DNA of 42,667 bases from Candidatus Zhuqueibacterota bacterium (GCA_049322915.1 JBMOPW010000041.1:1-42667), one strand, 5' to 3'. Counted from the first letter of the stretch, positions 2-41,533 are shown. Program-made: numbers and translations. Notes: generated by a model not told the origin, from the sequence alone.

Positions 2-721
2 CCACGTCTCGATGGTGTAGGAACCTTCCAGCCCGGAGAACTGGTGGTTGGTGTTGATGTCGCCATCAAACCAGTACACATAGCTGTTGCCATTGAACTG
101 GGCGCAGCGGCCCAGATTCGGCGTCAGAATCACTTTGGTCTTGAACACCGGATTGCCCGACGGCGTCTCCACATGGCCGGTCACGATCCCATTGGGATTC
201 AGAAATCCAATGTCATTATCCAGATGACTTACGCCCATGTCGTTTTCAACAGCGACGCCATAGGTATACGTCATGCCGGGGAAAACATTTAAATCCTGAA
301 ATTGTGTCTGCTTTATTGGGAGCGTGGTCAGGATATAGTTGTTTCGGTACAAGGTAACTTCCTGGCTGTTCACCGGCGGCCCGGTGCGGTCGCCTTCGAT
401 ATCCCATTCGACAATGACAATATCCTGAAAGTCGCCGTCCGATGCGCGGACCAATGGAGCGGCCGGTTCTTTGAGGTAATGGCTCCAGAAACCGGTAGCG
501 ACTGAATTCACTGAATAATTGGTATTTTCCATTGTCGCAAATGGCTGACCGATCGTTGCAATCACGGAGAAGAGTTTACCTTTCATCTGCCCGGTGGATG
601 AACTGGTGAGCATTTGCTTTTCGACTTTATAGATTGGCTCGCAGAGTTGTGCATGTAGGAACGATGGTGACCACCACACAACGGACAGGATAAGCAGCCA
701 TATTCGAATTATATTTTTCAT
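2..721 (-). CDS. 5' part of a secreted protein (signal peptide, 'TIGQP..GFW' N-terminal segment, FN3-like domain, start of LamG/concanavalin-like domain); runs off the left edge
   Basis: Manual translation from ATG at 721 stays open for 240 codons to the edge: MKNIIRIWLLILSVVWWSPSFLHAQ...VIATIGQPF...VATGFWSHY...VRASDGDFQDIVIVEW...FQDLNVFPGMTYTYGVAVEN...AQFNGNSYV...SYTIETW. GAGGA RBS upstream; starts 33 nt after the preceding stop. Absent from the ORF track because no stop lies inside the window. Confidence 0.85.
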   Translation of the reverse strand, partial: MKNIIRIWLLILSVVWWSPSFLHAQLCEPIYKVEKQMLTSSSTGQMKGKLFSVIATIGQPFATMENTNYSVNSVATGFWSHYLKEPAAPLVRASDGDFQDIVIVEWDIEGDRTGPPVNSQEVTLYRNNYILTTLPIKQTQFQDLNVFPGMTYTYGVAVENDMGVSHLDNDIGFLNPNGIVTGHVETPSGNPVFKTKVILTPNLGRCAQFNGNSYVYWFDGDINTNHQFSGLEGSYTIETW

Positions 722-754
722 AGATTTTTCCTCGCGCGTGCGATTTATCCTGTT

Positions 755-2494
755 TTAATATTTAATGATATAATTGATAACAATATACGGCTGAAGGATA
801 TTGTGCGCCGTGCTGCTCCCCGTCGACGCGGAATTGAATGCCCCGATATCCAGTGTGTGTCTATGATCTCCGGTTTCTGAGGTAGTACCACCAGATGCAG
901 TCGGGTATTCGACTGCGGTGCCATTTGTATCGTGGTCCAAACCAGTATAACTACCATTCGTAGGGTCAGTATAGGAATGAGTGTGCTTACCGACGGAATC
1001 TGTCAATTTAGACGGCGGATCCACGGAATGGGTGTGCGAAGGCATTTCGTCAACAGTCAGCGTATGGGTTTTTTCACCACCTTTTTCATTCAGGGTGTCG
1101 AACGACGAATCACCTGGGTCTCTGCCAACCGGGACGCGACCTTTGAAATTTGGCAGAGCAAAGCTCGAAGCGGTTCCGCCATAGGTCGTCCCAATGACGG
1201 CATACAGATCGGCGTAGGTGGTGGAACTCACAGCGGAACCATCGCAGATGAGCCAGCCGGCCGGCGCTGTGCTTCCGGAATACATGGCGATGGTGCCCAC
1301 TGGCGCCAGGTACCCGGTTACGTCTTTTATCCTTCCCGAAGAGGTTATGTCACCAGCGGTTATGTCGGTCGCCTTGATAGTGCCAATCACTTCCAGTTTT
1401 GTCGAAGGGGTTGTTATGCCAATGCCCACTTCGCCATCCGTATCAATGGTGACCACTGCAGCATTCTCCTGTACCAACTGAACCGAATTATCCGAAACCG
1501 TTCCAAGATAAAAAGCATCCTTTCTGGAGCCAGTATAAATCTGGCCGATATCTCCAACCAGCCCAATCCGCGCATACAACGTGCCGAGGTCCTGATAGAA
1601 TCCGATGCTCGGATTATCATTTTCATTGTTATTATCCGTGTCCGCTTCGATTCGCACTTCGGCATCTGCGGTCGAGGAACTGACGTGAAGCAGCGCGTCG
1701 GTTTTGGGCCCGACGCCAACATTGCCATTATTGGCGACCGTCATGACCGTCGCAGCGCCGCTCACCACCTGCACCGAGCCTGAGCCATTATCATCGGCAT
1801 CCGTCGTGATGATCACATTGCCATTATTGGTCAACGACGACGCTGATCCGCCGAAATGAGCGCTGGAGAGCGCCGAGCCATCGCTGAACAGAATGGAGCC
1901 GTTGCGCAATTTCAGATTGCCGCTGATGTCCAGCGCCTGCTCCGGGGTGACATTCAGTCCGATTTTGCCAGTGGCGTCCACGGTCATCACACCGCCGCCG
2001 GCCGCTGAGCTCTCGATCTTCAACAGATTATCCGCGGCGTTCTGCGTCTTGATGTGCAGCCCGGCGGCAGGACTGGTGAGGCCCACGCCCACATTGCCGC
2101 TCGACGGGAATGTATTTTTTACACCGAAAACAGACATGGCTGCCGGCGCTTTCAGGAGCTTCATGCGCGGCTCCAATTCCTGATCGCCTTCGACAGAAAT
2201 ACCGAGATAATACTGGGTGCTGAATGATAAATTTGTCAACGGTACCTGGGACCCCAGTTCCACAATAAAAACGCCATGTTTGACATCGACGCTGGCCTGG
2301 GTCTCAGTCCATAAAGCAGTTCCTCCAGTGGCGGCTGTATAAATGCGAAAGGTGATGCTGTAGAAGCCATCGGTTACAGTTCTTCCTAAAGGATCCCGCA
2401 ATACTCCCTGAATGGAGAAAGTTTGCGCGAGAGCCGTCTGACTGATCATACAAACAATGATGCAGACAATGAAAGATGAGATGATTCGCTTCAT
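755..2494 (-). CDS. Secreted phage tail-fibre-like protein with C-terminal tail-collar domain and His-x-His tip
   Basis: Sec signal peptide (..TALA/Q); repeated GxVG[IV]G shaft motifs; collar signature PVGTIAMYSG..APAGWLICDG..YADLYAVIGTTYGG..FALPNFKGRVPVG; HTH/HTH/HRH motifs; ends 'HNILQPYIVINYIIKY'; AAGGAG RBS. Confidence 0.85.
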   Translation of the reverse strand: MKRIISSFIVCIIVCMISQTALAQTFSIQGVLRDPLGRTVTDGFYSITFRIYTAATGGTALWTETQASVDVKHGVFIVELGSQVPLTNLSFSTQYYLGISVEGDQELEPRMKLLKAPAAMSVFGVKNTFPSSGNVGVGLTSPAAGLHIKTQNAADNLLKIESSAAGGGVMTVDATGKIGLNVTPEQALDISGNLKLRNGSILFSDGSALSSAHFGGSASSLTNNGNVIITTDADDNGSGSVQVVSGAATVMTVANNGNVGVGPKTDALLHVSSSTADAEVRIEADTDNNNENDNPSIGFYQDLGTLYARIGLVGDIGQIYTGSRKDAFYLGTVSDNSVQLVQENAAVVTIDTDGEVGIGITTPSTKLEVIGTIKATDITAGDITSSGRIKDVTGYLAPVGTIAMYSGSTAPAGWLICDGSAVSSTTYADLYAVIGTTYGGTASSFALPNFKGRVPVGRDPGDSSFDTLNEKGGEKTHTLTVDEMPSHTHSVDPPSKLTDSVGKHTHSYTDPTNGSYTGLDHDTNGTAVEYPTASGGTTSETGDHRHTLDIGAFNSASTGSSTAHNILQPYIVINYIIKY

Positions 2495-4120
2495 GATTGA
2501 CTCCTTTAATAACTCGAGAGCAGTAAAAATTAGAATCTTTATCGACTTCTAAAGACGTTTGATTATAAGTATATCAGTTATTTAATTGAATATTCGCTTT
2601 ATTAAAAAGTAGTCCTGGCAAAGCACTCACTCTGAATAGCGCATGAACTGATGTTTTGAATTCATATCCTATACCTCGTTTTAACATGGATATTCAAAAT
2701 GATGATCTTCATTTGATTGAGTTTACAGCTAATTTTTAAAACGAATTAATTGCCAGCCAATATAATAAGGGCTACTACCAAAAGTAGAAATCGTCAAACG
2801 GTATTGCACGGGAGAATTTCGGCAAATAATTAAATAGGTAATTTGAGCCCCAATCCTAAAATAACCAGTTTTTACGGAGGAACTACTTGTTTGATGATTT
2901 TCCAAATATCGCCATTCATTTCTGGTGGGGTTGGCGATACTTAGAGATACAAAAGTATCACTTGCATATAATTCCGAACTTGAAACAAGATATTCTCCAG
3001 TCCAATTTCCTGTTTCCTTTAAATAAACCTGAACATAGCTGCCATATTTTCGGAACGCCAGATAAACATCCTCATAGAAAATCGGACTAGCATCATCATA
3101 AGGGTAAATACCCGACCTTAAAAGGCAACCAGCGATTGAGCCATTCGCGACATCCTGTAAATCTGAATCAAGCCGTTCGTTGGGTACCGTGCCGCTGGAC
3201 AAATTGGAGGCATTCAGATTGGTAACCGACGAACCGTTAATTCGCTCAGATGGGACGGAGCCGGATGCAAGATTGGAGGCATTTAGACTGGTAATCGATG
3301 CACCATTTCCGGAGAGGGTGTTAGCTGCGACGTTACCGCTTACCGACATTGCCGAAGAAGTGACCGTGCCATTTACCGTTAAGGGTTGGGTCGGATTTGT
3401 TGTTCCGATTCCAACGTAGCCATTATTCGCCACGGTCAAAACCGTTGTGGCGCCGCTCACCACCTGCACCGAGCCGGAGCCATTATCATCAGCGTCGGTC
3501 GTGATGATCACATTGCCATTATTGGTCAATGACGACGCCGAGCCGCCAAAATAGGCGCTGGAGAGCGAGGAGCCATCGTCGAATAGAATTGAGCCATTGC
3601 GCATTTTCAGATTACCGTTGATGTCCAGCGCCTGCTCCGGCGTGACATTGAGTCCAATTTTACCATTGGCGTCCACGGTCATCACGCCGCCGCCCGGCGC
3701 TGAGCTCTCGATCTTCAACAGATTATCCCCGGTATTCTGAGTTTTGATGTGCAACCCGGCAGCCGGGCTAACAATGCCCACACCCACATTTCCGATCGAT
3801 GGGAACGTATTTTTTGTGCCGAAAACAGACATGGCCGCCGGCGCTTTTTGAAGCTTCATGCGCGGTTCCAATTCCTGGTCGCCTTCAACGGAAATACCGA
3901 GAAAATACTGGGCGTTGAACGATAAATTTGTGAGCGCTACCTGGGACCCCAATTCCACAATAAAAACGCCATGTTTGACATCGACGCTGCCCTGGGTCTC
4001 GGTCCATAATGCTGTTCCGCCGATTGCGACGTCATAAATTCGAAAGGTGAGGCTATAGGCGCCATCAGCTACACTTCTTCCTAATGGATCTCTGAGTACT
4101 CCCTGAATCGAAAAAGTCTC
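1712..4120. repeat. Direct repeat of ~710 bp (approx. 1712-2425 vs 3407-4120) encoding the shared fibre N-terminus
   Basis: Constant offset of 1695 nt at the points checked (e.g. ctcaccacctgcaccgagcc at 1761 and 3456); many differences are synonymous. Confidence 0.9.
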
Positions 4121-4180
4121 AGCGAAGGCCAATTGGAATAGCCCGCATAGAATCAGAAACGATAAGAGTGTACGTTTCAT
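2729..4180 (-). CDS. Secreted tail-fibre-like paralog with unrelated C-terminal tip
   Basis: Signal peptide (..LAFA/E); first ~260 aa collinear with 755..2494; two 'LNASNLxSG[ST]VPxER' fibre-type repeats; unrecognised AT-rich C-terminal ~130 aa; AAGGAG RBS. Confidence 0.8.
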   Translation of the reverse strand: MKRTLLSFLILCGLFQLAFAETFSIQGVLRDPLGRSVADGAYSLTFRIYDVAIGGTALWTETQGSVDVKHGVFIVELGSQVALTNLSFNAQYFLGISVEGDQELEPRMKLQKAPAAMSVFGTKNTFPSIGNVGVGIVSPAAGLHIKTQNTGDNLLKIESSAPGGGVMTVDANGKIGLNVTPEQALDINGNLKMRNGSILFDDGSSLSSAYFGGSASSLTNNGNVIITTDADDNGSGSVQVVSGATTVLTVANNGYVGIGTTNPTQPLTVNGTVTSSAMSVSGNVAANTLSGNGASITSLNASNLASGSVPSERINGSSVTNLNASNLSSGTVPNERLDSDLQDVANGSIAGCLLRSGIYPYDDASPIFYEDVYLAFRKYGSYVQVYLKETGNWTGEYLVSSSELYASDTFVSLSIANPTRNEWRYLENHQTSSSSVKTGYFRIGAQITYLIICRNSPVQYRLTISTFGSSPYYIGWQLIRFKN

Positions 4181-4476
4181 GATAAACTCCTTGCTTATGA
4201 AAGATGATGCTTTGAATCGGGATTAGCAAATGACGTTTCTATTATCGTCACTTGATGACAAGTAATTAGTTTTTCATGGCTTGTTACAATTTATTAAATT
4301 TGCTTTCCGGGCGGATGGCAAATGGATTGATACTTATTATTATCAGTCAGATACTGAGAGTCGTTGGAAAAAAAGTTATTCGGTCGCACACTATTGATAC
4401 AAAAAAATAACAGCCTTTTCGGCAATAGTCTGGGTTTGCTCCGCCCTGGTATATTTCACAAAAATGCAATTTTCTA

Positions 4477-22908: not shown

Positions 22909-24681
22909 TCACTGTACGAATATCAATTTCTTGTAACTTGAAAATATACCTGAATTCAACTGGTAAAAATAAATCCCGGATGCAGCCTGTCGAAATTGGC
23001 TATCTGTTCCGTACCAGACAATTTCATGCTTTCCTGCGGAGAGAAATTCATCTGTTAAAATTTTTATAACCTTTCCGGTGATGTCGACAATCCTGAGTTT
23101 CACATGCCCGGATTCCGGCAGATGGAAAGCAATTTTTGTGGCGCTGTTGAACGGGTTGGGATAATTCTGAAACAGCTCAAAATTCTTCGGCACGGTTTCA
23201 GCATTCGGCTGCTCAACCGACGTGGAAAAAGTGGACGCACGCGAAGAGACAATCACCGGATTTTCAACGTTTTGCGCCAGTTGCTCCCCATCGGCTTTGC
23301 TTAAATTCCCCGGTAAAAAATAGGCGGTGAAACCCAGCTCCAGGCTGACGCTGTCCTGGTCCAGGTTTTTGAACAGAATCCCCTGGTCGCCAAAAGACAC
23401 ACTGTCCCCGGTATCTCCGCCCTGGACGAACGATTCGTCTCCCTGGCCACCCCCGCGGTTGTCGTAAAAATAGAGGTCCGTGCTCAGCCAGCTCTGGTCT
23501 TCAAACGTCACGTGCGCGAACATGGAGCCCTGGTTGCCGCTGGTCAGCGTCCATTCTTTGATGGGCGTGTCAATGGTTTTGACCGGCGAGTCCGGCATGC
23601 CATCGATCAGAATGCCGTCGTTGCAGGCATTGTAGAATTTCATGCCGGAAGCGGCTTCGTTGAAATCCCATGACTGCCGGAGGAGATCCAGTTCGACAAA
23701 AATATCCTCATCGGTGTGGAATTCCTTTTTCAAATCCTCGGGATTCAGTTTGGCGCCGCCAGCGATGGCGCCGCTGAATGGGTAAAATTTTGTACGCACA
23801 TAAAATGCGATTTCATCCAGCACAAACTCGCCGAAACGAATGGTCTGCCGCACTTCGCGGACGAGGCGCACCACGGGTTTGGGCGTCACCCAGAGATGGT
23901 AATTATCCGGATCGAATTCATTGTACAGATAAATATTGTCACGTTCGTTGGCTGCCGGATTGTTCCCTTTGCCGATGGGAATGGTGATATAGCCAAAATC
24001 GAGGACGCCGATGAAGCGGAGTTTCTGCGTGTCAAAAATGTCCCGGCCATTCCCCAGGGGCGGGTGAATGGCGATGTCTTCGATCAGGCCGGTGGTGTTG
24101 CTCAGGCGAACCGAGTAATTCCTGTTGCTGACGCACCCGCTTTCCGCATCAAAGGCGAATGAGTAGGGAGTGGGAATTTCCTCGCCAATGGAGGCGGAGC
24201 GATAGAGATAGCCATAGCGACAATCGCCGGGATCGCTCGGGGACATGACTTTTAACTCCAGTCTCGGGTGGGATTTGGATTCCTGGTCCGGAATCCACGC
24301 CGAGTCCGGCGCTGCATCGCCCAGATCCCGGATCAGGAACACCAGTTCATCTCTGGAATCCAACAGGCCATCATCCGGCACGGAATAAAAATCCTGCATG
24401 GCGCTCGTCACCCCGGGCTTGAAGGGGTCTTCCGCAAAAATCATCTCATCGATCTGAAACGGGATCATGGCCCAGGCATGGGAATTTTCGTTGTAAGCGT
24501 AAAGATAAAGCTGATCGATGGAGGCGTCGTAGAATGATTTCAGCGCATCGCCGCGAATGACCACGGGCTCATAGATTCGATCGCTGGCAAGATCGGCGCC
24601 GGTCAGTTTTGCGGCCAGAAAAAATGCAGTGAGGCACGCTGAAAAAAGGATGGTTCGCAGCATTGATACATCAGTTTTCAC
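22909..24681 (-). CDS. Secreted protein of unknown function with C-terminal T9SS-A/FlgD-like sorting domain
   Basis: GTG start with AAGGAG RBS; signal peptide; C-terminus 'FELFQNYPNPFN..WYGTD..SGIYFYQL..KKLIFVQ'; acidic Asp-rich body. Confidence 0.82.
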   Translation of the reverse strand: MKTDVSMLRTILFSACLTAFFLAAKLTGADLASDRIYEPVVIRGDALKSFYDASIDQLYLYAYNENSHAWAMIPFQIDEMIFAEDPFKPGVTSAMQDFYSVPDDGLLDSRDELVFLIRDLGDAAPDSAWIPDQESKSHPRLELKVMSPSDPGDCRYGYLYRSASIGEEIPTPYSFAFDAESGCVSNRNYSVRLSNTTGLIEDIAIHPPLGNGRDIFDTQKLRFIGVLDFGYITIPIGKGNNPAANERDNIYLYNEFDPDNYHLWVTPKPVVRLVREVRQTIRFGEFVLDEIAFYVRTKFYPFSGAIAGGAKLNPEDLKKEFHTDEDIFVELDLLRQSWDFNEAASGMKFYNACNDGILIDGMPDSPVKTIDTPIKEWTLTSGNQGSMFAHVTFEDQSWLSTDLYFYDNRGGGQGDESFVQGGDTGDSVSFGDQGILFKNLDQDSVSLELGFTAYFLPGNLSKADGEQLAQNVENPVIVSSRASTFSTSVEQPNAETVPKNFELFQNYPNPFNSATKIAFHLPESGHVKLRIVDITGKVIKILTDEFLSAGKHEIVWYGTDSQFRQAASGIYFYQLNSGIFSSYKKLIFVQ

Positions 24682-26117: not shown

Positions 26118-28490
26118 CTATCTCAGTAATGCCATCTTCTTAGAACTAACAAAATCACCGGCTTTGATCTGATATAGATAAATTCCCGAGACTACCTGAT
26201 TGCCCCCGTCATCTTTTCCATCCCAATGAATCGTGTAATAACCAGCCGGCTTTTTTTCGTTGATCAATTCCACGATCTCCTGCCCCAGTGAATTGTAGAC
26301 CTGAATCACGACCGGGCAGGTCGTGGGCAGTTGAAAATAGAACGTCGTTCCGGCATTGAATGGATTGGGAAAGTTTTGTAACAGAGCAAATCCATTGGGA
26401 ATTGAGTGTTGAAAAAGTGCAGCGACCTCAGCCACGATGGAGCCCTGTTCCGACCACAAGCTTTCATTTCCAGAAAAATCGATTGCCGACACTTGGTAAC
26501 AGTAACTATGCCCGGAATCAATACGGGCGTCAACGAAGAACGTGTCGCTAGTCGTTCCGTAGGCGATGGCCGTTGCGGGATCGAATCCACTCTCTGTCTC
26601 CCGATAGACTGCGTAGTAATCAAAATCCTCATCAATGACACCGTTCCAGCGGATGACAGCCTGCCAGTCGGTTCCCGATTTATGTTGAGAAATGGTCACT
26701 CCGGTTGGTGGCGACGGCGCGAGGTTGTCCACGGAATAGCCGCTGTCAGGGTCGCTTAGCACAAATTTCCCGGGATCAGAACAATGGGCGGAAACCATGA
26801 ACACGGACCAGGGAATGCCAGCAGCCGTGGAATCCGCCAGCGTCGTTGCGACACAAGCGTATTGGGTAAATTGACAGGCCGGGATCGAGATGACAAAATC
26901 CCAGAGTTCATTATTCGCCGTCATCAGACGACCAATTTTACACTCAGAAGAATTGGTTTGGGGAATCAGTTCGGAAATCCTATGCATCGGATACGATGGT
27001 GATCGTGACAATCCCGTCCGATCAGCGACCCGCCGCCAGATGGCGTAGTGCGTGGTTTCGTGCCGGTTGCTGCGACCGTCAAAATAATCCGGAGCCCAGA
27101 TAATGCGCACTTGTTTGCCCTGATCATTGGCAATATCGGATATCGAATGAATCTTGACAAACACCTTCGCCCCCAACGCCCCGATATTGGCGCCGCTTTC
27201 ACCGGCGCCAATGCACGGAGAATCCGGCAATAAATAATAATCATGGAGATGCGCCGCTGCGATATTGGGATAAAGGATAAATTCGTGGGAGGAAAGCGGC
27301 AGCCCTTTAATCGGACCCTGGCCGTTCTGCCAATAACAATTGTAATCGTGAATAAAATCCGTCGGCGTGCCGGACAGTTCGATCGCTTCGTCAGTGGTCA
27401 GGGTAATGATGTTGTTTTTGATCGTCATTGCCTTGGGATCAGTGCCCAGCGCAATTCCATCGTATCGGTAAACGTTGAGAATGGTATTGTTGATAATCTT
27501 GATGGATTCCGAGTTGTCGATCTGAATGCCATGGAATTCATTGCTATCGATCACACAGTAGGTGACGTCGATCAACTCGCTATTAAAAATTCCAATTCCA
27601 TTGCCATGCCAGGCTGAGAGTTCATCATTATTGTGGATGTAGTTTTTCGTGATCAGGCAGTGGCGGCAATTATCAAGGACGATCCCGGAATGGCCTTTGG
27701 TCACTTCAAAGCCAGCAATTTTACACCAGGAGACATTCTGAAAGCTGATGCAGTTGAAGATTCCCTGATTTCCGGCGGCGGTGATGACGCAGGCATTGCT
27801 GCCATCCTCGTTTCGGGAGCCCAGTAATTGCAGATGATCGATGCGCTCATTGACAATAGTGCTATTGATCTGATAAACGCCCGGCGCGACGGCCACCGTA
27901 TCCCCTTCGCTGGCTGCGTCGATCGCTGCCTGAATCGTCCCATAATCCGCCGGCACGTGAATCACATTCCCGTGCACTGGCAGATACTCTTCAATGACCG
28001 CGATCAGCTCAGCTTCATGATACGATACTTTCAAGTAACGCACGACCATTGTCGGATCGATGATCACGTAGCGCGGAACCATCCACTCCGGACCTCCGTA
28101 ATCGGCCCAGATAAAGGCATCGCGATCCAAAAGCCAGGGGTACGTGATGCTGAGTGAATCGATCCAGGCGGCGACCGTCGCCGCATTTTCACCAATGTTG
28201 ATACCGATGACCTGCAAACCCCGCATTCGATACGGCTGCCAGATGTTATTTTCGACAAGCGGTGTTTCCGAATTGCAGTCGGGGCACCATGTTGTACAAA
28301 AGTGTAGCAGAATACAAGAACCCTGATAATTGTTCAGGGAAACGTTATTCCCGTTGCAGTCCCGGAGCGTGAAATTGGCGACAGTATCCCCCACACTGTA
28401 TTGAGCCAGCGCCAAATCAACAGTGACGAGGAAAAACAGGCTGTTGATTAAAAGGCATGTGATTTTCAGTTTCGAAAAATTTGTCGTCAT
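26118..28490 (-). CDS. Secreted multidomain protein: TlpA/AhpC-TSA redoxin + right-handed beta-helix + FN3-like + T9SS-A/FlgD-like sorting domain
   Basis: Signal peptide; 'NFTLRD.NGNNVSL....G..ILLHF.TTWCPDC'; 'IHVPADYGTIQAAIDAASEGDTVAVAPGVY' plus NN ladders; 'DNLAPSPP..W..DFDYYAVYR..Y.VSAIDFSGNES'; 'LLQNFPNPFN..WDGKD..SGIYLY..KKMALLR'; AAGGAGG RBS. Confidence 0.88.
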   Translation of the reverse strand: MTTNFSKLKITCLLINSLFFLVTVDLALAQYSVGDTVANFTLRDCNGNNVSLNNYQGSCILLHFCTTWCPDCNSETPLVENNIWQPYRMRGLQVIGINIGENAATVAAWIDSLSITYPWLLDRDAFIWADYGGPEWMVPRYVIIDPTMVVRYLKVSYHEAELIAVIEEYLPVHGNVIHVPADYGTIQAAIDAASEGDTVAVAPGVYQINSTIVNERIDHLQLLGSRNEDGSNACVITAAGNQGIFNCISFQNVSWCKIAGFEVTKGHSGIVLDNCRHCLITKNYIHNNDELSAWHGNGIGIFNSELIDVTYCVIDSNEFHGIQIDNSESIKIINNTILNVYRYDGIALGTDPKAMTIKNNIITLTTDEAIELSGTPTDFIHDYNCYWQNGQGPIKGLPLSSHEFILYPNIAAAHLHDYYLLPDSPCIGAGESGANIGALGAKVFVKIHSISDIANDQGKQVRIIWAPDYFDGRSNRHETTHYAIWRRVADRTGLSRSPSYPMHRISELIPQTNSSECKIGRLMTANNELWDFVISIPACQFTQYACVATTLADSTAAGIPWSVFMVSAHCSDPGKFVLSDPDSGYSVDNLAPSPPTGVTISQHKSGTDWQAVIRWNGVIDEDFDYYAVYRETESGFDPATAIAYGTTSDTFFVDARIDSGHSYCYQVSAIDFSGNESLWSEQGSIVAEVAALFQHSIPNGFALLQNFPNPFNAGTTFYFQLPTTCPVVIQVYNSLGQEIVELINEKKPAGYYTIHWDGKDDGGNQVVSGIYLYQIKAGDFVSSKKMALLR

Positions 28491-29587: not shown

Positions 29588-32500
29588 TTATTTCACATGG
29601 AGCATCTTTTTTGTCTCGACAAAGGCGCCGGCCTGAATCCGATACAGATACAGCCCGGAATTGAAATGCACTGTGGACAAATGGATACGATGCGTTCCGG
29701 CGTCGAATTGATCCCGGGCCAGCGTTGCAATTTCGCGCCCCAACAGGTCGTAAATTTTGAGCGTGACGAACTCCCGATGCGGCAGCGTAAACAGGATGGT
29801 GGTCGTGGCGTTGAATGGGTTGGGATAATTCTGCGCCAGTGTGTAGCGCTCGGGTTGATGTTCGCTTTCATCTTCTATCACCGGTGTGTTCATCTGAAGT
29901 CCGGCGCCGATCATCAAATCGCGCTTATCCCAGGGATCGCCGTCGTCGATAAAATTGCTCCAGGCCGCGCCATCGAAATACCAGCTTCGGCCGGCATAGG
30001 GAAAATCCTCGTCGTAACCCAGCGACGGTTCCCCGCCGGCCAGCCATTCCATGCTGATGTAGAAATTGCCGGAGTTGATCTGAATATTTTTCGCGGATAA
30101 ATCGACTGTGTTCCAGGCATTGCCCTGCGGCGTGAACGTCACGGGACTGGCGAGCAACGCCGAACCTGGTACACCGGCGCTGCCGTTGTCGTCGATTACA
30201 TTCAGTTTCAGCGAGGCGGCATCTCCGTAAATATAAAAATTGACAAAGCTCAATTTCGCCGGATACGTCGGTGGCGTGAATTCCACGGCCAGGCGCTCGC
30301 CCGCACCTGTGACATACACGCCGCCTTCATGGGTGCCGTCGTCGTAAAATAGCTCTGTGGCGCGGTGATTGTTGATCACTGCATATTTCTCAGCAGCCCG
30401 GCTGGCGCTTTGCCGAAGATCGGAAAGATCGTATCCGGCAGCCAGGGCAATGGTGAAACGTGCGCTTTTGCCGGGCGATAAACTGATCTTCGGGGCTGTC
30501 AGCAAAATGGATAAATCGCCCTGACCGATGGAACCCATGGCCCCCGAGGCATTCATCAACTCGAACATGATTTGATCCAGCAGGTCGCTCGTCTCGTACA
30601 CTGTATTGGCATTGTTAATGATTTTGAATGAATAGGGGGTGGCATTGAGAAGCGCCACTCCAAGATAATCATTGCCTGTGGCGCCGCTGTCCCACATGTA
30701 GCCCAAACGCAGGTCCGAAGCGTATGTGGCGTCGTTGGTTTCGTAGTTCGGCTGGCAGTCCCAATCCATGAGAAATCCTAACAGGAGATTGGTGAGCGTT
30801 GCGTCGCCGTCATTCATAATTTCATAATCCAGCAGAATGAATTGGTCGTACGGCGCAGCATTCCAGGAATAGCTGTGCTGGTTGACCGTGAGATGCGCCA
30901 GACCGTTGGGTGAAGTCAGGTATTTTTCGAACTGGGCGAACGTCTCTGTATCGGCGACCATGCTGGATTCAATGACGCGGGATTTGCCGGTGGCCGTGGT
31001 GCGCCAGGTATCGTCCTCGCAGTGATTGAGATTGCCATAGCTATCGGCCATGTCCTCGCCCCAGACGCCGGCGATGAATGTGCCGCTATAACCATGGTCT
31101 GTGCCGGCGGATTTGGGAAATGTGAATCCCGGATCCCCGCCGCTGGCGTTGCCAACGCCGCCCCAGTCCGATAGCCCGCAATTCACCTTCCCGCTCTCCT
31201 GCTGAAATGCGCTGCCGGCAAGACTCCCTTCGACCAGATCCAGCGCCGCGCTGATGTCCAGCTTGCCATGCCCCCAGTATCGATTCCAGACTGCGCCGGT
31301 ATAATCGTCGATTGTCGCGCTGCTGGTGAGAATATCTTTGAGTTGATCCGGCGTCAACCGGGGATTTTTTTGGAACAGCAGGGCAATCGCGCCGGCCACA
31401 TGAGGCGACGCCATACTCGTTCCCTGCATGAGCGTGTGAACGCCGTCCTCGACAATGCGCGTTTCGCTCGGTTCGCTATCCGCGGAAAGCACCGACGTGA
31501 TGCCGTGGCCGGGAGCGGTGAGTTCCGGTTTTGCCCGGCCATCGCGGGTCGGCCCGGGACTGCTGAAGCTGGAAATGTCCCACAATGCCGGATTCGATGT
31601 GTAGAAATAATGCCCGCCGTCCGAGGCGTCCCATTCGCGCTTGGTGCAATAGGATGCGACAGTGATCGCCTCGCGCGCTGTGCCAGGCACGCTGACGAGC
31701 ATGGTCCAGTCCAGATTGGAAGTGAATTCCACATCCGAGGATGACCAGGCGTCGAAACGGCCGTCGCTGATCTGATTGCCGCGAAGCTGAAAACTCCAAT
31801 CGCCATCTGCCACAGCGGTTCCGGCGTCATCGCTCACATAAATGCAGAAGCAGAAGTCCTGATTTTCAGGAGATTTCGAAGGCGCGATAATCTCAATTTT
31901 CCCAGCATCGGTTTCGTAACTCTGCCAATCCTCGGCGCTGCCAGAAGCAAATGCCGTGGTGGTGTAGCCGTTGGGCGCAGTGACTGTCAGCGTCATTCGG
32001 TCGCTGCCTTCGTGCCAGATATTGATGAAAAAATCCTCGCTGTTCTCCGCGACCGTGAACGTGGTCGTGACCGTTTCCGAAGCGAAGACCTGACCGCTGG
32101 CATGGAGGGGCAAATCACCTTCGTTGCCGGCAGAAATGACGATGGCTTTGCCGGGTCCGACAGCTTCATCAAAAGCCAATTCGTGCAACTCGGTGCCATC
32201 GTGAGCGCCCCAGTGACCGCCAAGGCTGAAATTGATCACCACCGGCCGGCCAAGTTCATCCGCTTTTTGCCTGACATAGGCCGCGCCGTTGATCTGGTTG
32301 TAGGTCGAAAAACTGTAATCCCCGCCTTTCACGAAAATCAAATCAGCCTGAGGCGCCATGCCAATGTACCGTTTCGCCTGATAGCCATTGCCGGTCGCGG
32401 AACCATCGCCGCCGGCAATCCCGGCCACGTGGCTGCCGTGACCATTAATGTCTTTTTCGCGAACCAGCCCGGCCGGGCTGCCATCGATTTCATTATTGAT

Positions 32501-33109
32501 CTGCGCTCGCGTGTATTCTGTGCCATAATCATAGCCGGCCGGATGCGGCCCGGCGTCATCGGTTTGATCCCAGAGATAGAGGATGCGCGAATTCCCCATC
32601 GCATCGATAAAATCCTCGTGCTTCCAATCGATGCCGGAATCGAATATCGCGACCAGCACGCCGTCCCCGCGATACGAAGGATTGCCGTCATAGACTTGAT
32701 CGACTTCCGTGGAAATTCGGCTCACATCCAGGCACGGCGGGATGATTCGGGAAATGTCTATCCACTCGACTTTTGACTCATGCGTCAGATTGAATATGCC
32801 CTGCTGCGTCGCTCGCGCCGTTGCAATGGAGCCGATGGTTGCGCTGATCGAGACGCCTGGGACGTCGAGCGCAGAAGCCGAGTCGCTGAATTTAATGATC
32901 ACGTGATACACCGTTTCGCCCGACTCAGTGGACGTTTCAAATGTGTCGCGATACCGGTCGAGCGCTGCCGCCTGTTTCTTCAAAACAAATTTCAGGCCGG
33001 GTGAACATTTTTGTAATTGCCGATTGGATAACTCCGTCCCGTTACTTTGGATGAATGAAATGCTCAGGAAAATCAATGAAAACATGGAGAACCGGAATAA
33101 CCTGTACAT
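29588..33109 (-). CDS. S8 (subtilisin-like) serine peptidase with accessory domains and C-terminal sorting domain
   Basis: Catalytic triad IFDSGID / HGSHVAGIAG / GTSMASPHVAG; 'SAGNEG'; 'LAQNYPNPFN..KKMLHVK'; ATG 33109 follows GAGGAG (ORF track starts at 33145). Confidence 0.95.
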   Translation of the reverse strand: MYRLFRFSMFSLIFLSISFIQSNGTELSNRQLQKCSPGLKFVLKKQAAALDRYRDTFETSTESGETVYHVIIKFSDSASALDVPGVSISATIGSIATARATQQGIFNLTHESKVEWIDISRIIPPCLDVSRISTEVDQVYDGNPSYRGDGVLVAIFDSGIDWKHEDFIDAMGNSRILYLWDQTDDAGPHPAGYDYGTEYTRAQINNEIDGSPAGLVREKDINGHGSHVAGIAGGDGSATGNGYQAKRYIGMAPQADLIFVKGGDYSFSTYNQINGAAYVRQKADELGRPVVINFSLGGHWGAHDGTELHELAFDEAVGPGKAIVISAGNEGDLPLHASGQVFASETVTTTFTVAENSEDFFINIWHEGSDRMTLTVTAPNGYTTTAFASGSAEDWQSYETDAGKIEIIAPSKSPENQDFCFCIYVSDDAGTAVADGDWSFQLRGNQISDGRFDAWSSSDVEFTSNLDWTMLVSVPGTAREAITVASYCTKREWDASDGGHYFYTSNPALWDISSFSSPGPTRDGRAKPELTAPGHGITSVLSADSEPSETRIVEDGVHTLMQGTSMASPHVAGAIALLFQKNPRLTPDQLKDILTSSATIDDYTGAVWNRYWGHGKLDISAALDLVEGSLAGSAFQQESGKVNCGLSDWGGVGNASGGDPGFTFPKSAGTDHGYSGTFIAGVWGEDMADSYGNLNHCEDDTWRTTATGKSRVIESSMVADTETFAQFEKYLTSPNGLAHLTVNQHSYSWNAAPYDQFILLDYEIMNDGDATLTNLLLGFLMDWDCQPNYETNDATYASDLRLGYMWDSGATGNDYLGVALLNATPYSFKIINNANTVYETSDLLDQIMFELMNASGAMGSIGQGDLSILLTAPKISLSPGKSARFTIALAAGYDLSDLRQSASRAAEKYAVINNHRATELFYDDGTHEGGVYVTGAGERLAVEFTPPTYPAKLSFVNFYIYGDAASLKLNVIDDNGSAGVPGSALLASPVTFTPQGNAWNTVDLSAKNIQINSGNFYISMEWLAGGEPSLGYDEDFPYAGRSWYFDGAAWSNFIDDGDPWDKRDLMIGAGLQMNTPVIEDESEHQPERYTLAQNYPNPFNATTTILFTLPHREFVTLKIYDLLGREIATLARDQFDAGTHRIHLSTVHFNSGLYLYRIQAGAFVETKKMLHVK

Positions 33110-33350
33110 GCTGCGCTCCTCGGAAAAGAGATGAAACCGCTTCAACCATTCAGGCGCGATCTGTCAATGACTGCCTGCCAGTTGCGTGAGAGAAATCGGA
33201 GCGGCCAGCGCAATCCGGTTAAAGTGAATGGAAATCTATTCCAGCCGCTTGCTCCGGCCGGATTGCACGGAACCGCACTCCATCGGGACTATCGATGCCA
33301 GTGGGTTGATCGACGTCCAGGACGAGATTTCAAGGGAAAAAACGAAGCTT

Positions 33351-39742: not shown

Positions 39743-41533
39743 ATGAGCAACATAGCAGTAATAAATAAGTTATTTTGGAAGACAATCTCACTTTTAATCA
39801 TCGGCGCATTATCGTTTCATAACGCTTGGGCTCAGGGATTTACAAGGCTCTCTACTTCTAGCTTGGGTCGCGATCTCGGTGGTTTTCTTGGTACAGCCTG
39901 GGGCGATTATGATAACGATGGATACGTGGACTTGTTTGTCGCCAATTGTAAAGGTCCCAACATGCTTTTCCATAATGATGGTATCAGAGGATTCACCAAA
40001 ATAACGACCGGAGAAATATCGACTGATCAGGCCAATTCATATAGTGCGAGCTGGGGTGATTTTGACAATGATGGTGACCTGGATTTATTTGTCGCCAATT
40101 TAAGTGGCACTAATTTCTTGTATCGTAATGATGAAGGTATCCTTGTGAGAATCAAAGAAGGTGTTGTTGTCACAAGCAGGGGCAATTCTACCAGCGGCAG
40201 TTGGGGTGATTACGATAATGACGGCGATCTGGATCTGTTCGTGACAAATGATACACAAAAAAATTTCCTTTATCAAAATAATGGGGACGGTACTTTTACA
40301 AAAATCACCAACAGCATCGTTGTCAACGACGTTATTGTGTCTTCGTTAGTAGGCTTATGGGCTGATTACGACAATGACGGCGATCTTGATTTATATGTAG
40401 TGAATGGATTTTTTTCCTTAAGTTCTAATTTCCTTTATCGTAATGAAGGGCTGGGAAATTTCACAAAAATTACAACAGGTAGCATTGTCACCGATGTCGA
40501 AGGATCGACTGGAGGAAGTTGGGGAGATTACAACAATGATGGTTACCTCGATCTGTATGTCTGCAATAGCGTCAATAATGCCCGGAATTCACTTTATCGT
40601 AATAATGGCAATGGCACTTTTACAAAAATATTCAACGGTAGTATTGTGACTGATACCGGTCATTCAGTTGGCAGCAGTTGGATTGACTATGACAATGATG
40701 GTGATTTAGATCTGTTTGTCGTGAATGTTTTTGCTGCAAATAATATATTATACAGGAACAATGGAAATGGAAGCTTCTCAAAAATTACATCTGGAGCAAT
40801 TGTAAATGATACCGGATACCCTTTTGGATGTAGCTGGGCTGATTTTGATAATGATGGCGATCAGGATGCAATTGTGACCAATGGTGGATTCAGTCTGACA
40901 ATGAATAACTTTTTTTATCGGAATGATCAGAGTCAACACAACTGGATTACGATTCAGCTTAAAGGAACTACGGGGAATTCTTCTGCGATTGGGGCTATGG
41001 TTCGTGTTAAAGCGACAGTCCTGGGGAAAACGATCTGGCAGGTGCAGCAGATTGCAGGACAGTCTGGTTTTTTAGGACAGAACAGTCTGGATGCTGAATT
41101 TGGTTTGGGTGATGCGACCACTATTGATTCAATAATCATTAAATGGCCGTCAGGTAATTTACAAGTGTTGACCGATGTTGAAGCAAATCAATTCCTAAAA
41201 ATAGTTGAAGAACAGACAACTGAGGTATTTCAAAAATTATCCAGTAAAGCGTCATTAGAATATAATTTAGCAGACAATTATCCCAATCCATTCAATGCCA
41301 ACACTATCATGGAATATCAAGTGACGCAAGCCGGGAATGTAAGAATCAATATTTTTAATCTGCTCGGTCAAAAAGTGATAACGCTTGTCGATGAAATGCA
41401 TCAGTCAGGACGCTATTCTATTTTATGGGATGGAATAGATGGAACAGGCAATTCTGTCCCATCCGGGATGTATTTTTATAAAATGGAAGCGGATAAATTT
41501 TCAGCGACGAAAAAAATGTTACTGCTCGAATAG
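39743..41533 (+). CDS. Secreted FG-GAP/VCBS-repeat (CRTAC1-like) protein with ASPIC/UnbV domain and T9SS-A/FlgD-like sorting domain
   Basis: Seven 'W.D[YF][DN]NDG..D...N...[LF][YF].N' repeats; 'NWITIQLKG..N.SAIGA.V..GFLGQN...EFGLG....IDSIIIKWPSG'; 'LADNYPNPFN..WDG.D..SGMYFY..KKMLLLE'; AAGGAGG RBS. Confidence 0.93.
   Translation: MSNIAVINKLFWKTISLLIIGALSFHNAWAQGFTRLSTSSLGRDLGGFLGTAWGDYDNDGYVDLFVANCKGPNMLFHNDGIRGFTKITTGEISTDQANSYSASWGDFDNDGDLDLFVANLSGTNFLYRNDEGILVRIKEGVVVTSRGNSTSGSWGDYDNDGDLDLFVTNDTQKNFLYQNNGDGTFTKITNSIVVNDVIVSSLVGLWADYDNDGDLDLYVVNGFFSLSSNFLYRNEGLGNFTKITTGSIVTDVEGSTGGSWGDYNNDGYLDLYVCNSVNNARNSLYRNNGNGTFTKIFNGSIVTDTGHSVGSSWIDYDNDGDLDLFVVNVFAANNILYRNNGNGSFSKITSGAIVNDTGYPFGCSWADFDNDGDQDAIVTNGGFSLTMNNFFYRNDQSQHNWITIQLKGTTGNSSAIGAMVRVKATVLGKTIWQVQQIAGQSGFLGQNSLDAEFGLGDATTIDSIIIKWPSGNLQVLTDVEANQFLKIVEEQTTEVFQKLSSKASLEYNLADNYPNPFNANTIMEYQVTQAGNVRINIFNLLGQKVITLVDEMHQSGRYSILWDGIDGTGNSVPSGMYFYKMEADKFSATKKMLLLE

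Follow-up and report, generated by a model that had tools for sequence, protein, structure and literature searches.

The left end of contig C41 from a Candidatus Zhuqueibacterota bacterium (GCA_049322915.1, JBMOPW010000041.1; herein G000) probably encodes a chromosomal fibre-and-anchor cassette, in which two exported, phage-derived trimeric fibres, A and B, lie beside a docking anchor, gene C (Table 1). The fibres would be of the kind described by Caulton et al. (2024, PMC10769870) in Bdellovibrio bacteriovorus, the mosaic adhesive trimers (MAT). A first-pass annotation of the DNA had proposed gene C as a dock for interchangeable fibres; this docking is now supported computationally, as a prediction that draws on a module profile, on gene co-occurrence and on a modelled interface. 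The window analysed here comprises the first 42,667 bases of the contig, so that the contig start cuts gene C and its 3' part is lacking; a check found the rest of the gene to be absent from the assembly.

Table 1. Positions of the fibre and anchor features in the window
Feature	Position	Strand	Description or basis
Fibre A	2729..4180	minus	ORF, 483 aa; signal peptide, MAT-like N-domain, shaft common with B to residue ~260, rare tip
Fibre A N-domain ('socket'), residues ~21-137	3770..4120	minus	profiles A1 and A2
Fibre B	755..2494	minus	ORF, 579 aa; signal peptide, MAT-like N-domain, shaft, phage collar/gp10-like HxH tip
Fibre B N-domain ('socket'), Ig-like beta sandwich	2075..2425	minus	AF2 model
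Fibre B tip: Collar (residues 400-455), Gp10_C (451-574), HxH motifs	773..1297	minus	Pfam
Gene C, 5' part, 240 codons	2..721	minus	ORF, 3' end open
Gene C predicted Sec signal peptide	650..721	minus	read from sequence, ...FLHA/QLC
Gene C three-strand 'plug' module, residues 29-85	467..637	minus	module profile, E 3.3e-6
Gene C FN3-like beta sandwich, residues 85-168	218..469	minus	predicted fold and Foldseek

Gene content of the locus

The tandem arrangement of two fibre genes with signal peptides and a near-identical N-domain, as first annotated, is borne out by the ORFs: the N-termini of A and B are identical at 218 of 262 residues (83%), with no relation beyond residue ~260. As this identity spans ~260 residues, the shared part exceeds the N-domain originally marked and takes in the proximal shaft. 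Both proteins have signal-peptide-like starts as read from the sequence (n-region, hydrophobic stretch and AXA-type site; ...LAFA/ETF in A, ...TALA/QTF in B), which points to export via Sec, and both are presumably trimeric. Neither carries a sorting domain in Pfam or NCBIfam, in agreement with the first-pass annotation, and a regular-expression signature found a CTD-like end in 0 of 54 fibre ORFs from 47 loci. The AF2 model of the fibre B N-domain is all-beta (pLDDT 85-97 over chain residues 1-94); a structure search with it returned generic Ig/FN3-like matches only (best Z 6.8).

The tip of fibre B is assigned by Pfam to Collar (PF07484; 79.4 bits, cut-off 24, E 2e-22) and Gp10_C (PF21939; 36.9 bits, cut-off 27, E 8.3e-9) and contains three HxH motifs. 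Fibre A matches no Pfam family, including these two; its tip is rare and was met again in P0171 alone. Tail-fibre families of PHROGs match fibre B from residue ~240 onwards only (phrog_9116, E 1.2e-40), and its distal half is clearly of phage origin.

That origin would also suit a decayed prophage or a contractile-injection-system remnant in which the fibre signal peptides were mis-called, an explanation that we regard as extremely improbable. By Pfam, 19 further ORFs of the window, right of position 1, are ordinary chromosomal genes; as the first-pass annotation had noted, none is a phage structural gene, and no flanking prophage or eCIS context, which it had held would undo the docking idea, was seen among them. 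The fibre N-domain has no PHROG match, and a signal-peptide-like start followed by this domain is kept in the 54 fibres from 47 loci. Furthermore, the same cassette is present twice in G000, and two more fibre loci share its layout; the two paralogous cassettes together bear four different fibre tips.

In gene C, the 'S..TIGQP...GFW' segment pointed out in the first-pass annotation corresponds to residues 29-85, a module of ~55 residues with three similar strands (S-x-N-Y-x-hydrophobic) at the mature N-terminus. It can be aligned with 43 other modules and is divergent, scoring 27 bits against the profile of the small partner proteins described below; this match agrees with the resemblance, proposed in the first-pass annotation, of the segment to small sorting-domain proteins found beside fibres. 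When gene C was folded alone with AF2, the module had a pLDDT of ~28-31, and residues 85-168 formed a beta sandwich (pLDDT 73-92) whose top Foldseek matches in the PDB are all FN3, the best of them borderline (4o00_A, E 1.0e-3, TMt 0.56). The FN3-like half of the original description of gene C thus stands, on a borderline match, while LamG (PF13385) was found in gene C homologues only, the window copy ending at the LamG start.

Homologues of gene C range from 1582+ to 2376 aa, and by comparison with them gene C would be a giant LamG-rich surface protein. Because its own C-terminus is missing from the assembly, we infer its sorting domain from complete homologues: one of 2111 aa (L016) matches TIGR04183 (28.7 bits, cut-off 23), and one of 2376 aa (P0150) has FlgD_ig at its end (residues 2305-2355, 36.3 bits). 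The T9SS machinery is present in G000, with SprA (712.8 bits), PorU (868.7 and 818.5 bits) and PorV (258.3 bits) all above curated cut-offs.

Pairing of module and fibre genes

The fibre N-domain was detected in 107 of 167 genomes of the window's phylum, a tally in which G000 is counted, as are two unpublished genomes (G158, G162). To search for the module we used a profile seeded solely from fibre neighbours in other genomes and iterated once over pooled ORFs, including those of G000. Among 40 same-phylum loci picked by fibre score alone (without G158 and G162), 30 have a same-strand module gene beside the fibre, mostly 2-150 nt downstream. At 7 of the other 10 the contig ends within 501 nt downstream of the fibre; three loci (L057, L060 and L089) have room downstream, yet no module gene was detectable there with the profile. 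When the 15,393 ORFs in G000 are ranked by their match to the module profile, the top four (E 1.8e-19, 5.9e-10, 1.6e-6 and 0.0034) coincide with the four genes that adjoin fibre genes; the fifth has E 0.033.

The association extends to other phyla. The module occurs in 15 of 121 Chloroflexota and 15 of 151 Bacteroidota genomes sampled; in fibre searches that covered only these module-positive genomes, a fibre N-domain match was found on the same strand and no more than 4 kb away for 30 of 39 Chloroflexota module genes, and no more than 6 kb away for 22 of 25 Bacteroidota module matches, the strand being shared in 21 of these. P0013, the top-scoring module protein and picked blind, is encoded immediately behind a fibre gene, on a contig of a Chloroflexi MAG. 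Fibre and module genes are paired in three bacterial phyla or more, and the neighbourhood co-occurrence that the first-pass annotation had suggested looking for is strong. Viewed from the fibre side, 27 of the 62 fibre matches in module-positive Bacteroidota genomes have a module within 6 kb, so that many fibres would either lack a dock next to them or rely on one shared at a distance.

The usual partner consists of the module and a T9SS sorting domain. Nineteen of 31 module partners are at most 220 aa long and amount to module, linker and sorting domain; an NPFN-type sorting-domain motif is found in 29 of the 31 partners, compared with 0 of 54 fibres. All four small partners scanned score above cut-off for TIGR04183 or Por_Secre_tail and show no domain beyond the module and the sorting domain. 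Anchors of other kinds also lie behind the module: a dockerin (Pfam) in Chloroflexota, where the module itself is fused to it, a PEP-CTERM-like tail and a 'YLPLxxR' tail.

Adjacent genes often make products that do not bind one another, and the locus could be an adhesin island of co-regulated, independent surface proteins, with the module as a motif in its own right, adhesive or related to export, that makes no contact with the fibre. The four other T9SS cargo genes of the window fit such an island, as do the many Bacteroidota fibres with no module within 6 kb and the conservation of the predicted interface, which is no higher than that of the rest of the N-domain (see below). We nevertheless hold it to be unlikely, given that the pairing is kept across three phyla though the type of anchor changes, that the best module matches in the genome all adjoin fibres, that most partners contain little beyond module and sorting signal, and that the complex is predicted far above its controls.

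Predicted docking of the module on the fibre base

The complex was modelled with three copies of the fibre N-domain, a number that we supplied, and residues 24-95 of gene C, using our own alignments. The interface between fibre and scaffold, a check put forward in the first-pass annotation, was predicted with ipSAE values of 0.81, 0.86 and 0.82 (median 0.82), compared with 0.01 for the best of three controls. Of 157 solved complexes 116 reach the ipSAE mark applied, as do 2 of 215 mismatched pairs; ipSAE expresses the confidence of the model itself, and the mark was calibrated on a set-up that differs from this 3+1-chain job with its own alignments. At least 92% of contacts agree between runs, and the pLDDT of the partner is at least 69. 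As neither the N-domain profile nor the module profile has a sequence relative in the PDB at E ≤ 1, a pass from model memory is unlikely.

In the predicted complex each of the three fibre copies is touched by the module at an identical set of three patches (B residues 26-40, 70-79 and 97-118), and the pLDDT of the module rises to 69-76 with the fibre, compared with 28 when an unrelated protein takes the fibre's place. The models thus predict a 3:1 fibre-module interface, with a module that is disordered alone and folds on binding the fibre; the trimeric state of the fibres and their binding of the module are both predictions. Of 47 predicted interface residues, 45 are identical in A and B; their socket surfaces are nearly alike, so either fibre could use the same dock. 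Within the N-domain, interface positions are not significantly more conserved than the others (entropy 1.55 vs 1.69 bits, Mann-Whitney p 0.20).

A small chaperone gene follows the tail-fibre genes of phages (Tfa, T4 gp38). The position of the module gene directly downstream of the fibre gene mimics such pairs, and a module predicted to be ordered only with the fibre would suit an assembly factor, a bacterial counterpart of the phage chaperone that aids trimerisation and has no role as an anchor. This we judge quite unlikely: module proteins appear from their sequences to be exported and to bear surface-anchoring signals, none of the six tested matches a PHROG family (a test of sequence match only), the predicted contact is at the N-terminal base of the fibre and not at its tip, and the module of the window heads a protein whose homologues are very long.

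Proposed mechanism and comparison with known systems

We propose that A and B form trimeric adhesin fibres of the MAT kind seen in Bdellovibrio, derived from phage and exported via Sec, in which a bacterial Ig-like N-domain (the 'socket') would stand in place of the phage baseplate-binding end and tips would be exchanged on a common base (collar/HxH in B, a rare tip in A). At the base of the fibre trimer the gene C module would take on its fold, a single plug serving three fibre chains, with each of its strands paired to the first strand (FSIQGVL) of one fibre subunit. Gene C, as a giant LamG-rich T9SS cargo anchored through its C-terminus, would place the fibre at the distal end of a long stalk, giving the predicted display of fibres at the surface; the fibre might be carried across the outer membrane by the plug protein, or dock only after crossing. 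The cassette may reveal the way in which fibres of this type stay attached to the cell, and no description of their plug-and-socket docking was found in the literature searched.

We extend this only tentatively to the view that the ~55-residue module serves MAT-type fibres in bacteria at large as a general receptor on the cell side ('plug'), a generalisation that we hold to be less likely than not. The module would then be a choice-of-anchor adaptor that folds only on the fibre trimer base (one peptide to three chains) and is fused to whatever anchor the lineage uses: a T9SS sorting domain, PEP-CTERM, a dockerin, a 'YLPLxxR' tail, a giant stalk or the PamT pilus tip of CPR bacteria. Where there is an outer membrane, a second task of the module would be to take the folded fibre, itself devoid of a sorting domain, out through the T9SS by piggyback. 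To our knowledge, piggyback export through the T9SS is not an established mechanism, and no paper on it was found in the literature searched.

Type A cargo of the T9SS in Porphyromonas and Flavobacterium has a C-terminal sorting domain that is cleaved by PorU, whereupon the protein is attached to anionic LPS. The module partners resemble such cargo in bearing C-terminal domains of the TIGR04183, PF18962 or FlgD_ig type, with SprA, PorU and PorV present; they differ in that the cargo either comprises little more than the module or is a giant stalk, and in its proposed job of holding a second protein that lacks a sorting domain. Phage tail fibres attach to the baseplate via their N-terminal domain. 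The present fibres would share with them a trimer held by its N-terminal end, a C-terminal tip that binds the target and a small gene that follows, but the N-domain has no phage relative in PHROGs and the proposed holder is a cell-surface protein, not part of a virion. Cohesin-dockerin pairs and donor-strand complementation in chaperone-usher systems are non-covalent plug-and-socket mountings of interchangeable surface parts, with pairing of edge beta strands. The predicted docking has both features; no sequence relation to either system was found, and in the prediction made here a single pseudo-threefold peptide binds three identical chains.

PamT is the predicted tip pilin of the 'Pam' pili of CPR bacteria; the Pam preprint (PMC13278184) describes it as a truncated Ig-like donor-strand acceptor and reports a tail-fibre-like gene conserved near the pam operon, its product consistently co-localised. 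The module protein might likewise be a pilin-like subunit acting by donor-strand exchange, as proposed for PamT, with the fibre as the tip adhesin of a polymer instead of a part mounted on a monomeric anchor. Although 16 of 44 modules weakly match the N-terminal third of the PamT model (NF058579, E ≤ 0.01, best 2.6e-7) and 42 of 157 module proteins have two or three tandem modules, we find this very unlikely: all PamT matches fall far below the 240-bit family cut-off, the module of the window has none and G000 has none at E ≤ 0.01, no chaperone/usher-like genes adjoin the cassette within the window, and the small partners scanned show no domains other than the module and the sorting domain. 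The module here differs from PamT as a three-strand peptide fused to other anchors.

The closest likeness of the fibres, as opposed to the dock, is to MAT fibres. A and B begin with a signal peptide and a beta-rich N-domain of ~130 aa (from the sequence, alignments A1 and A2, and the all-beta model) and are mosaic, with swapped tips on a common base; MAT fibres, as described by Caulton et al. (2024, PMC10769870), have a signal peptide, a conserved beta-rich N-domain of ~130 aa, a shaft, swappable tips of phage and lectin folds, and several paralogues per genome. All 54 fibre N-domains match NF053851 (Bdello_MAT_N) at E ≤ 0.01 (best 1.6e-13), all below cut-off though still specific; A scores 24.4 bits, B 25.4 bits and the five matches in G000 23.5-31.5 bits. 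Scores of 22-31 bits against a cut-off of 60 suggest a distant MAT branch in non-predatory phyla. That paper leaves the cell-side partner of the Bdellovibrio fibres open, whereas a conserved adjoining gene offers a candidate here; if the wider view of the module as a general plug is true, it would be the kind of partner that the MAT work left without a name.

Fiber genes and their N-terminal domain

The assembly of the source genome (G000; 6.25 Mb, 45 contigs) carries the cassette at the start of contig C41, whose initial 42,667 bases make up the window. Each of the three gene products starts with a leader of the basic-hydrophobic-AXA type, a predicted export signal judged by reading the sequence. 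Fibers A and B are identical at 218 of 262 N-terminal residues and show no relation past residue ~260, which bears out the first-pass annotation's description of tandem fiber genes with leaders and a near-identical N-domain. Fiber B ends in the Pfam families Collar (E 2e-22) and Gp10_C (E 8.3e-9), with HxH motifs, and its phage relatives in PHROGs cover it from residue ~240 onward only. No Pfam family matched fiber A, and its tip (residues ~335 through 483; window 2729 through 3180) has a single homolog among 5.8 billion proteins in a word-index search; the protein atlas gave no match to this tip at ≥0.9, and its strongest leads, hypothetical proteins of viruses, score 0.78, too low to be useful.

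Genes of the fiber cassette at the start of contig C41
Feature	Coordinates	Strand	Length
Fiber A	2729..4180	-	483 aa
Fiber B	755..2494	-	579 aa
Gene C	2..721	-	240 codons, open at contig start

Two further claims of that annotation hold: family scans find no sorting domain in A or B, a regex signature finds none in the collected fibers (0/54), and Pfam finds no phage structural gene among the 19 other ORFs of the window. The latter encode transporters, a galactokinase, a rhamnosidase, a TonB receptor, a kinase, a sigma-54 activator, and four cargo proteins of the type IX secretion system (T9SS). SprA, two PorU, and PorV, components of the T9SS machinery, are found in the source genome, all above cut-offs. 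A promoter and terminator scan of window positions 1 through 4800 gave counts not above those of shuffles. The window region is rich in genes for secreted proteins; the cargo gene at 26118-28490 (minus strand) encodes an unusual exported peroxiredoxin fusion of 790 aa (AhpC/TSA-redoxin, a right-handed, NosD-like beta helix, and a T9SS-type C-terminal domain), and further cargo genes at 22909-24681, 29588-33145, and 39743-41533 comprise one of unknown function, an S8 protease, and an FG-GAP/ASPIC protein.

NF053851, the N-domain model of the mosaic adhesive trimer (MAT) fibers of Bdellovibrio, matches A and B directly after the leader with 24.4 and 25.4 bits, respectively; as these scores lie below the curated cut-off of 60, A and B are distant relatives of MAT fibers, not members. 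The model matches all 54 collected N-domains at E ≤0.01 (best 1.6e-13) and nothing in 14 control genomes. Its five matches in the source genome are all fiber genes found here; the fiber N-domain profile A1 gives six, including a fiber on contig C3 that NF053851 misses. The predicted structure of the N-domain is an Ig-like sandwich (pLDDT 85-97). A fold search of the PDB returned generic Ig/FN3-like sandwiches only (best Z 6.8, rmsd 2.7 Å over 82 residues), a sequence search of the PDB found no relative at E ≤1, and BFVD gave no match at E ≤0.001. Within the phylum, the fiber N-domain profile detects the domain in 107 of 167 genomes, with ≤10 matches per genome, in a tally that counts G000 plus two unpublished genomes, G158 and G162. 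The fibers form a new branch within an established kind, the MAT type.

A three-strand module encoded beside the fibers

The flanks of high-scoring fiber matches in other genomes of the phylum were fetched as 40 loci, with fiber score as the sole criterion and G158 and G162 excluded. The genes beside most fibers encode a leader followed by a ~55-residue segment of three similar strands (SSxNYxIxxSVxxxGG, SxNYxLxxxIGQP, and SxNYxxxxGFW), herein the module. A module gene lies on the fiber's strand in 30 of the 40 loci, mostly 2 to 150 nt downstream; seven of the 10 module-less loci have ≤501 nt of contig remaining downstream, and three (L057 and L060, of the same genus, and L089) have downstream room and no module match. 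The first-pass annotation had likened the TIGQP/GFW segment of gene C to small sorting-domain proteins beside fibers. A module profile seeded with 14 small partners from other genomes and iterated once over pooled ORFs agrees with this, matching gene C at E 3.3e-6. Among the 15,393 ORFs of the source genome, the best four matches are the four fiber-adjacent genes (E 1.8e-19, 5.9e-10, 1.6e-6, and 0.0034; fifth match 0.033), of which the three strongest are not fully independent of the profile because G000 was in the iteration pool. A profile built from the gene C family only found just the two gene C copies in G000 and was replaced by the small-partner profile. A loose motif regex was dropped (15 matches, mostly noise), and a word-index search with the module of a small partner returned three close relatives only, which is uninformative on range.

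Most partners are small: 19 of 31 have ≤220 aa, comprising module, linker, and sorting domain. An NPFN-type sorting motif is present in 29 of 31, the exceptions being one masked partner and one with a PEP-CTERM-like tail. The latter, at L073:2332-4077 in a genome of the window's phylum (G124), ends in PEP...hydrophobic...RRKGLKKK. Larger module proteins also occur, at L079:3496-5679, where BACON_2 and cohesin-like domains separate the module from the sorting domain, and at C3:5467-7380 of G000. One locus, L066 (G018:C23:14000-33900), is a four-fiber array interspersed with two module genes, one partly masked.

Nine longer proteins, 432 to 1489 aa and mostly partial, are related to the 240 residues of gene C and contain LamG domains. 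In genome G018, a fiber whose tip is that of fiber A is followed by a copy with 77% identity and a length of at least 1582 aa, and a copy in G020 also follows a fiber. A complete 2111-aa protein in G019, with an N terminus of the gene C kind, follows a 309-aa collar-tipped fiber and has a T9SS sorting domain at its C terminus (TIGR04183, 28.7 bits; cut-off 23); P0150, a complete 2376-aa member of the gene C family, ends in a FlgD_ig-type domain. In the source genome itself, contig C15 begins with a paralogous cassette of the same layout as C41 (C-like gene 2..721; fibers 755..2494 and 2682..4334). C41 and C15 agree in every one of their first 127 bases, both starting at the same point inside gene C; the assembly therefore breaks inside gene C where both copies converge, and tblastn of the G000 assembly gave nothing past residue 241. 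Both fiber tips of the C15 cassette (C15:1-4406; L021) are collar-type and different from the tip of fiber B. At two more fiber loci, on C36 and C3, each neighbor gene encodes a comparable N-terminal motif together with a T9SS-type domain at the C terminus.

Predicted complex and proposed display of the fibers

The first-pass annotation had proposed that the segment could dock interchangeable fibers on a scaffold. Three copies of fiber B residues 23 through 160 (54-row alignment) were folded with one copy of gene C residues 24 through 95 (44 rows). The predicted complexes scored ipSAE 0.81, 0.86, and 0.82 (median 0.82), with 0.01 for the best of three controls. Of 157 solved complexes, 116 attain the ipSAE mark, as do 2 of 215 mismatched pairs, a calibration that is only rough for a job of three plus one chains. 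The runs share at least 92% of contacts, with partner pLDDT ≥69. Module residues 6 through 41 and 43 through 62 are predicted to contact all three fiber copies, through patches that are alike on each (chain residues 4-18, 48-57, and 75-96, i.e., B residues 26-40, 70-79, and 97-118); the best-defined predicted pairs join the first strand of the fiber (IQGVLR) to the second strand of the module (FSVIAT). Of the 47 residues in the predicted interface, 45 are identical between A and B, and their conservation shows no significant excess over the rest of the N-domain (p 0.20).

When gene C is folded alone, residues 22 through 83 have very low confidence (pLDDT ~28-31) and residues 85 through 168 are modeled with confidence as a sandwich, for which the top PDB matches are without exception FN3 domains (E 1.0e-3); with an unrelated protein in place of the fiber, module pLDDT is 28. 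Together, these models suggest that the module folds upon fiber binding. The docking proposal is supported computationally, by comparative genomics and a clean predicted complex.

T9SS cargo is anchored through its C-terminal end, which would make a module at the mature N terminus the part lying farthest out. With a small partner, the fiber would stay near the membrane; gene C would carry it on the end of a ~2,000-residue stalk. Fibers A and B, with their different tips, may compete for or alternate on one dock, and a fiber could cross the outer membrane bound to the module or dock afterward.

The module in other phyla and its relation to known systems

Searched against 1.84 billion proteins, the module profile matches 8,174 cluster representatives at E ≤0.001, 404 of them at the stricter E ≤1e-10. 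No family in the Pfam copy used covers the module. Sorting the best 146 matches by regex, with relatives of gene C set aside, gave 33 T9SS-like, 33 “YLPLxxR”, and 14 dockerin-like ends, five with a membrane helix and basic tail, and 61 other or partial. Many module proteins are tiny, consisting of leader, module, and tail only. P0048, P0059, P0105, and 30 others among the top matches (81 to 114 aa) join leader and module to a “(I/V)(Y/F)LPL(I/V)xR” end, which, from its sequence, looks like an undescribed sorting tail and has no family match. In 133 of 157 representatives, the module starts no later than residue 70, and 42 have it in two or three copies; none of the 157 fuses it to a fiber N-domain.

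The best match, P0013, from a Chloroflexota MAG, has three modules and a dockerin, and its gene directly follows a 461-aa fiber gene (N-domain E 5.5e-37). Among 20 loci related to P0013, 18 were set aside as dockerin matches only. An even sample of 121 Chloroflexota genomes includes 15 with the module (E ≤1e-6); a same-strand fiber N-domain match lies ≤4 kb from 30 of 39 module genes, and at least five of the nine unpaired ones are ≤1.4 kb from a contig start. A Bacteroidota sample of 151 genomes includes 15 with the module (E ≤1e-5), with a fiber N-domain ≤6 kb from 22 of 25 module matches (21 on the same strand). The neighborhood co-occurrence that the first-pass annotation named as a check is found in these two phyla as well as in that of the window. 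Conversely, a module lies ≤6 kb from 39 of 56 fibers in Chloroflexota and 27 of 62 in Bacteroidota; as the fiber searches covered module-positive genomes only, both fractions are conditional on that choice. One Chloroflexota genome (G184, 6.9 Mb) shows an expansion to 29 fiber N-domain and 18 module matches. The anchor varies between phyla while module and fiber are retained, which argues that anchoring is the conserved role of the module, not a T9SS-specific step.

As far as we could find, neither the module nor its proposed role as a choice-of-anchor adaptor has been described: among the titles and abstract openings searched, there was no description of the module-fiber pairing or of the module as a dock, and nothing relevant on a link between T9SS and tail-fiber-like proteins. 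NF058579, the model of PamT, weakly matches 16 of 44 modules and leaves the window module unmatched. The available part of the Pam preprint gives PamT as a predicted tip pilin, with a tail-fiber-like gene conserved near the pam operon (PMC13278184); a connection between module and PamT is a lead only.

MAT-type fibers are a recently recognized bacterial means of recognizing other cells, and the founding paper, in its available portion, states that what holds the invariant N-domain on the cell is unknown (PMC10769870); the accessible text of a 2026 review adds nothing further on the anchor (PMC13689555). The cassette and its recurrence in three phyla offer a concrete, testable candidate for this holder: a short module with interchangeable anchors. 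If confirmed, it would account for the display of fibers that have no sorting domain and for one dock accepting fibers with different tips; it would possibly represent a new mode of T9SS cargo, and the module would be a small tag with which to mount trimeric proteins on bacterial surfaces.
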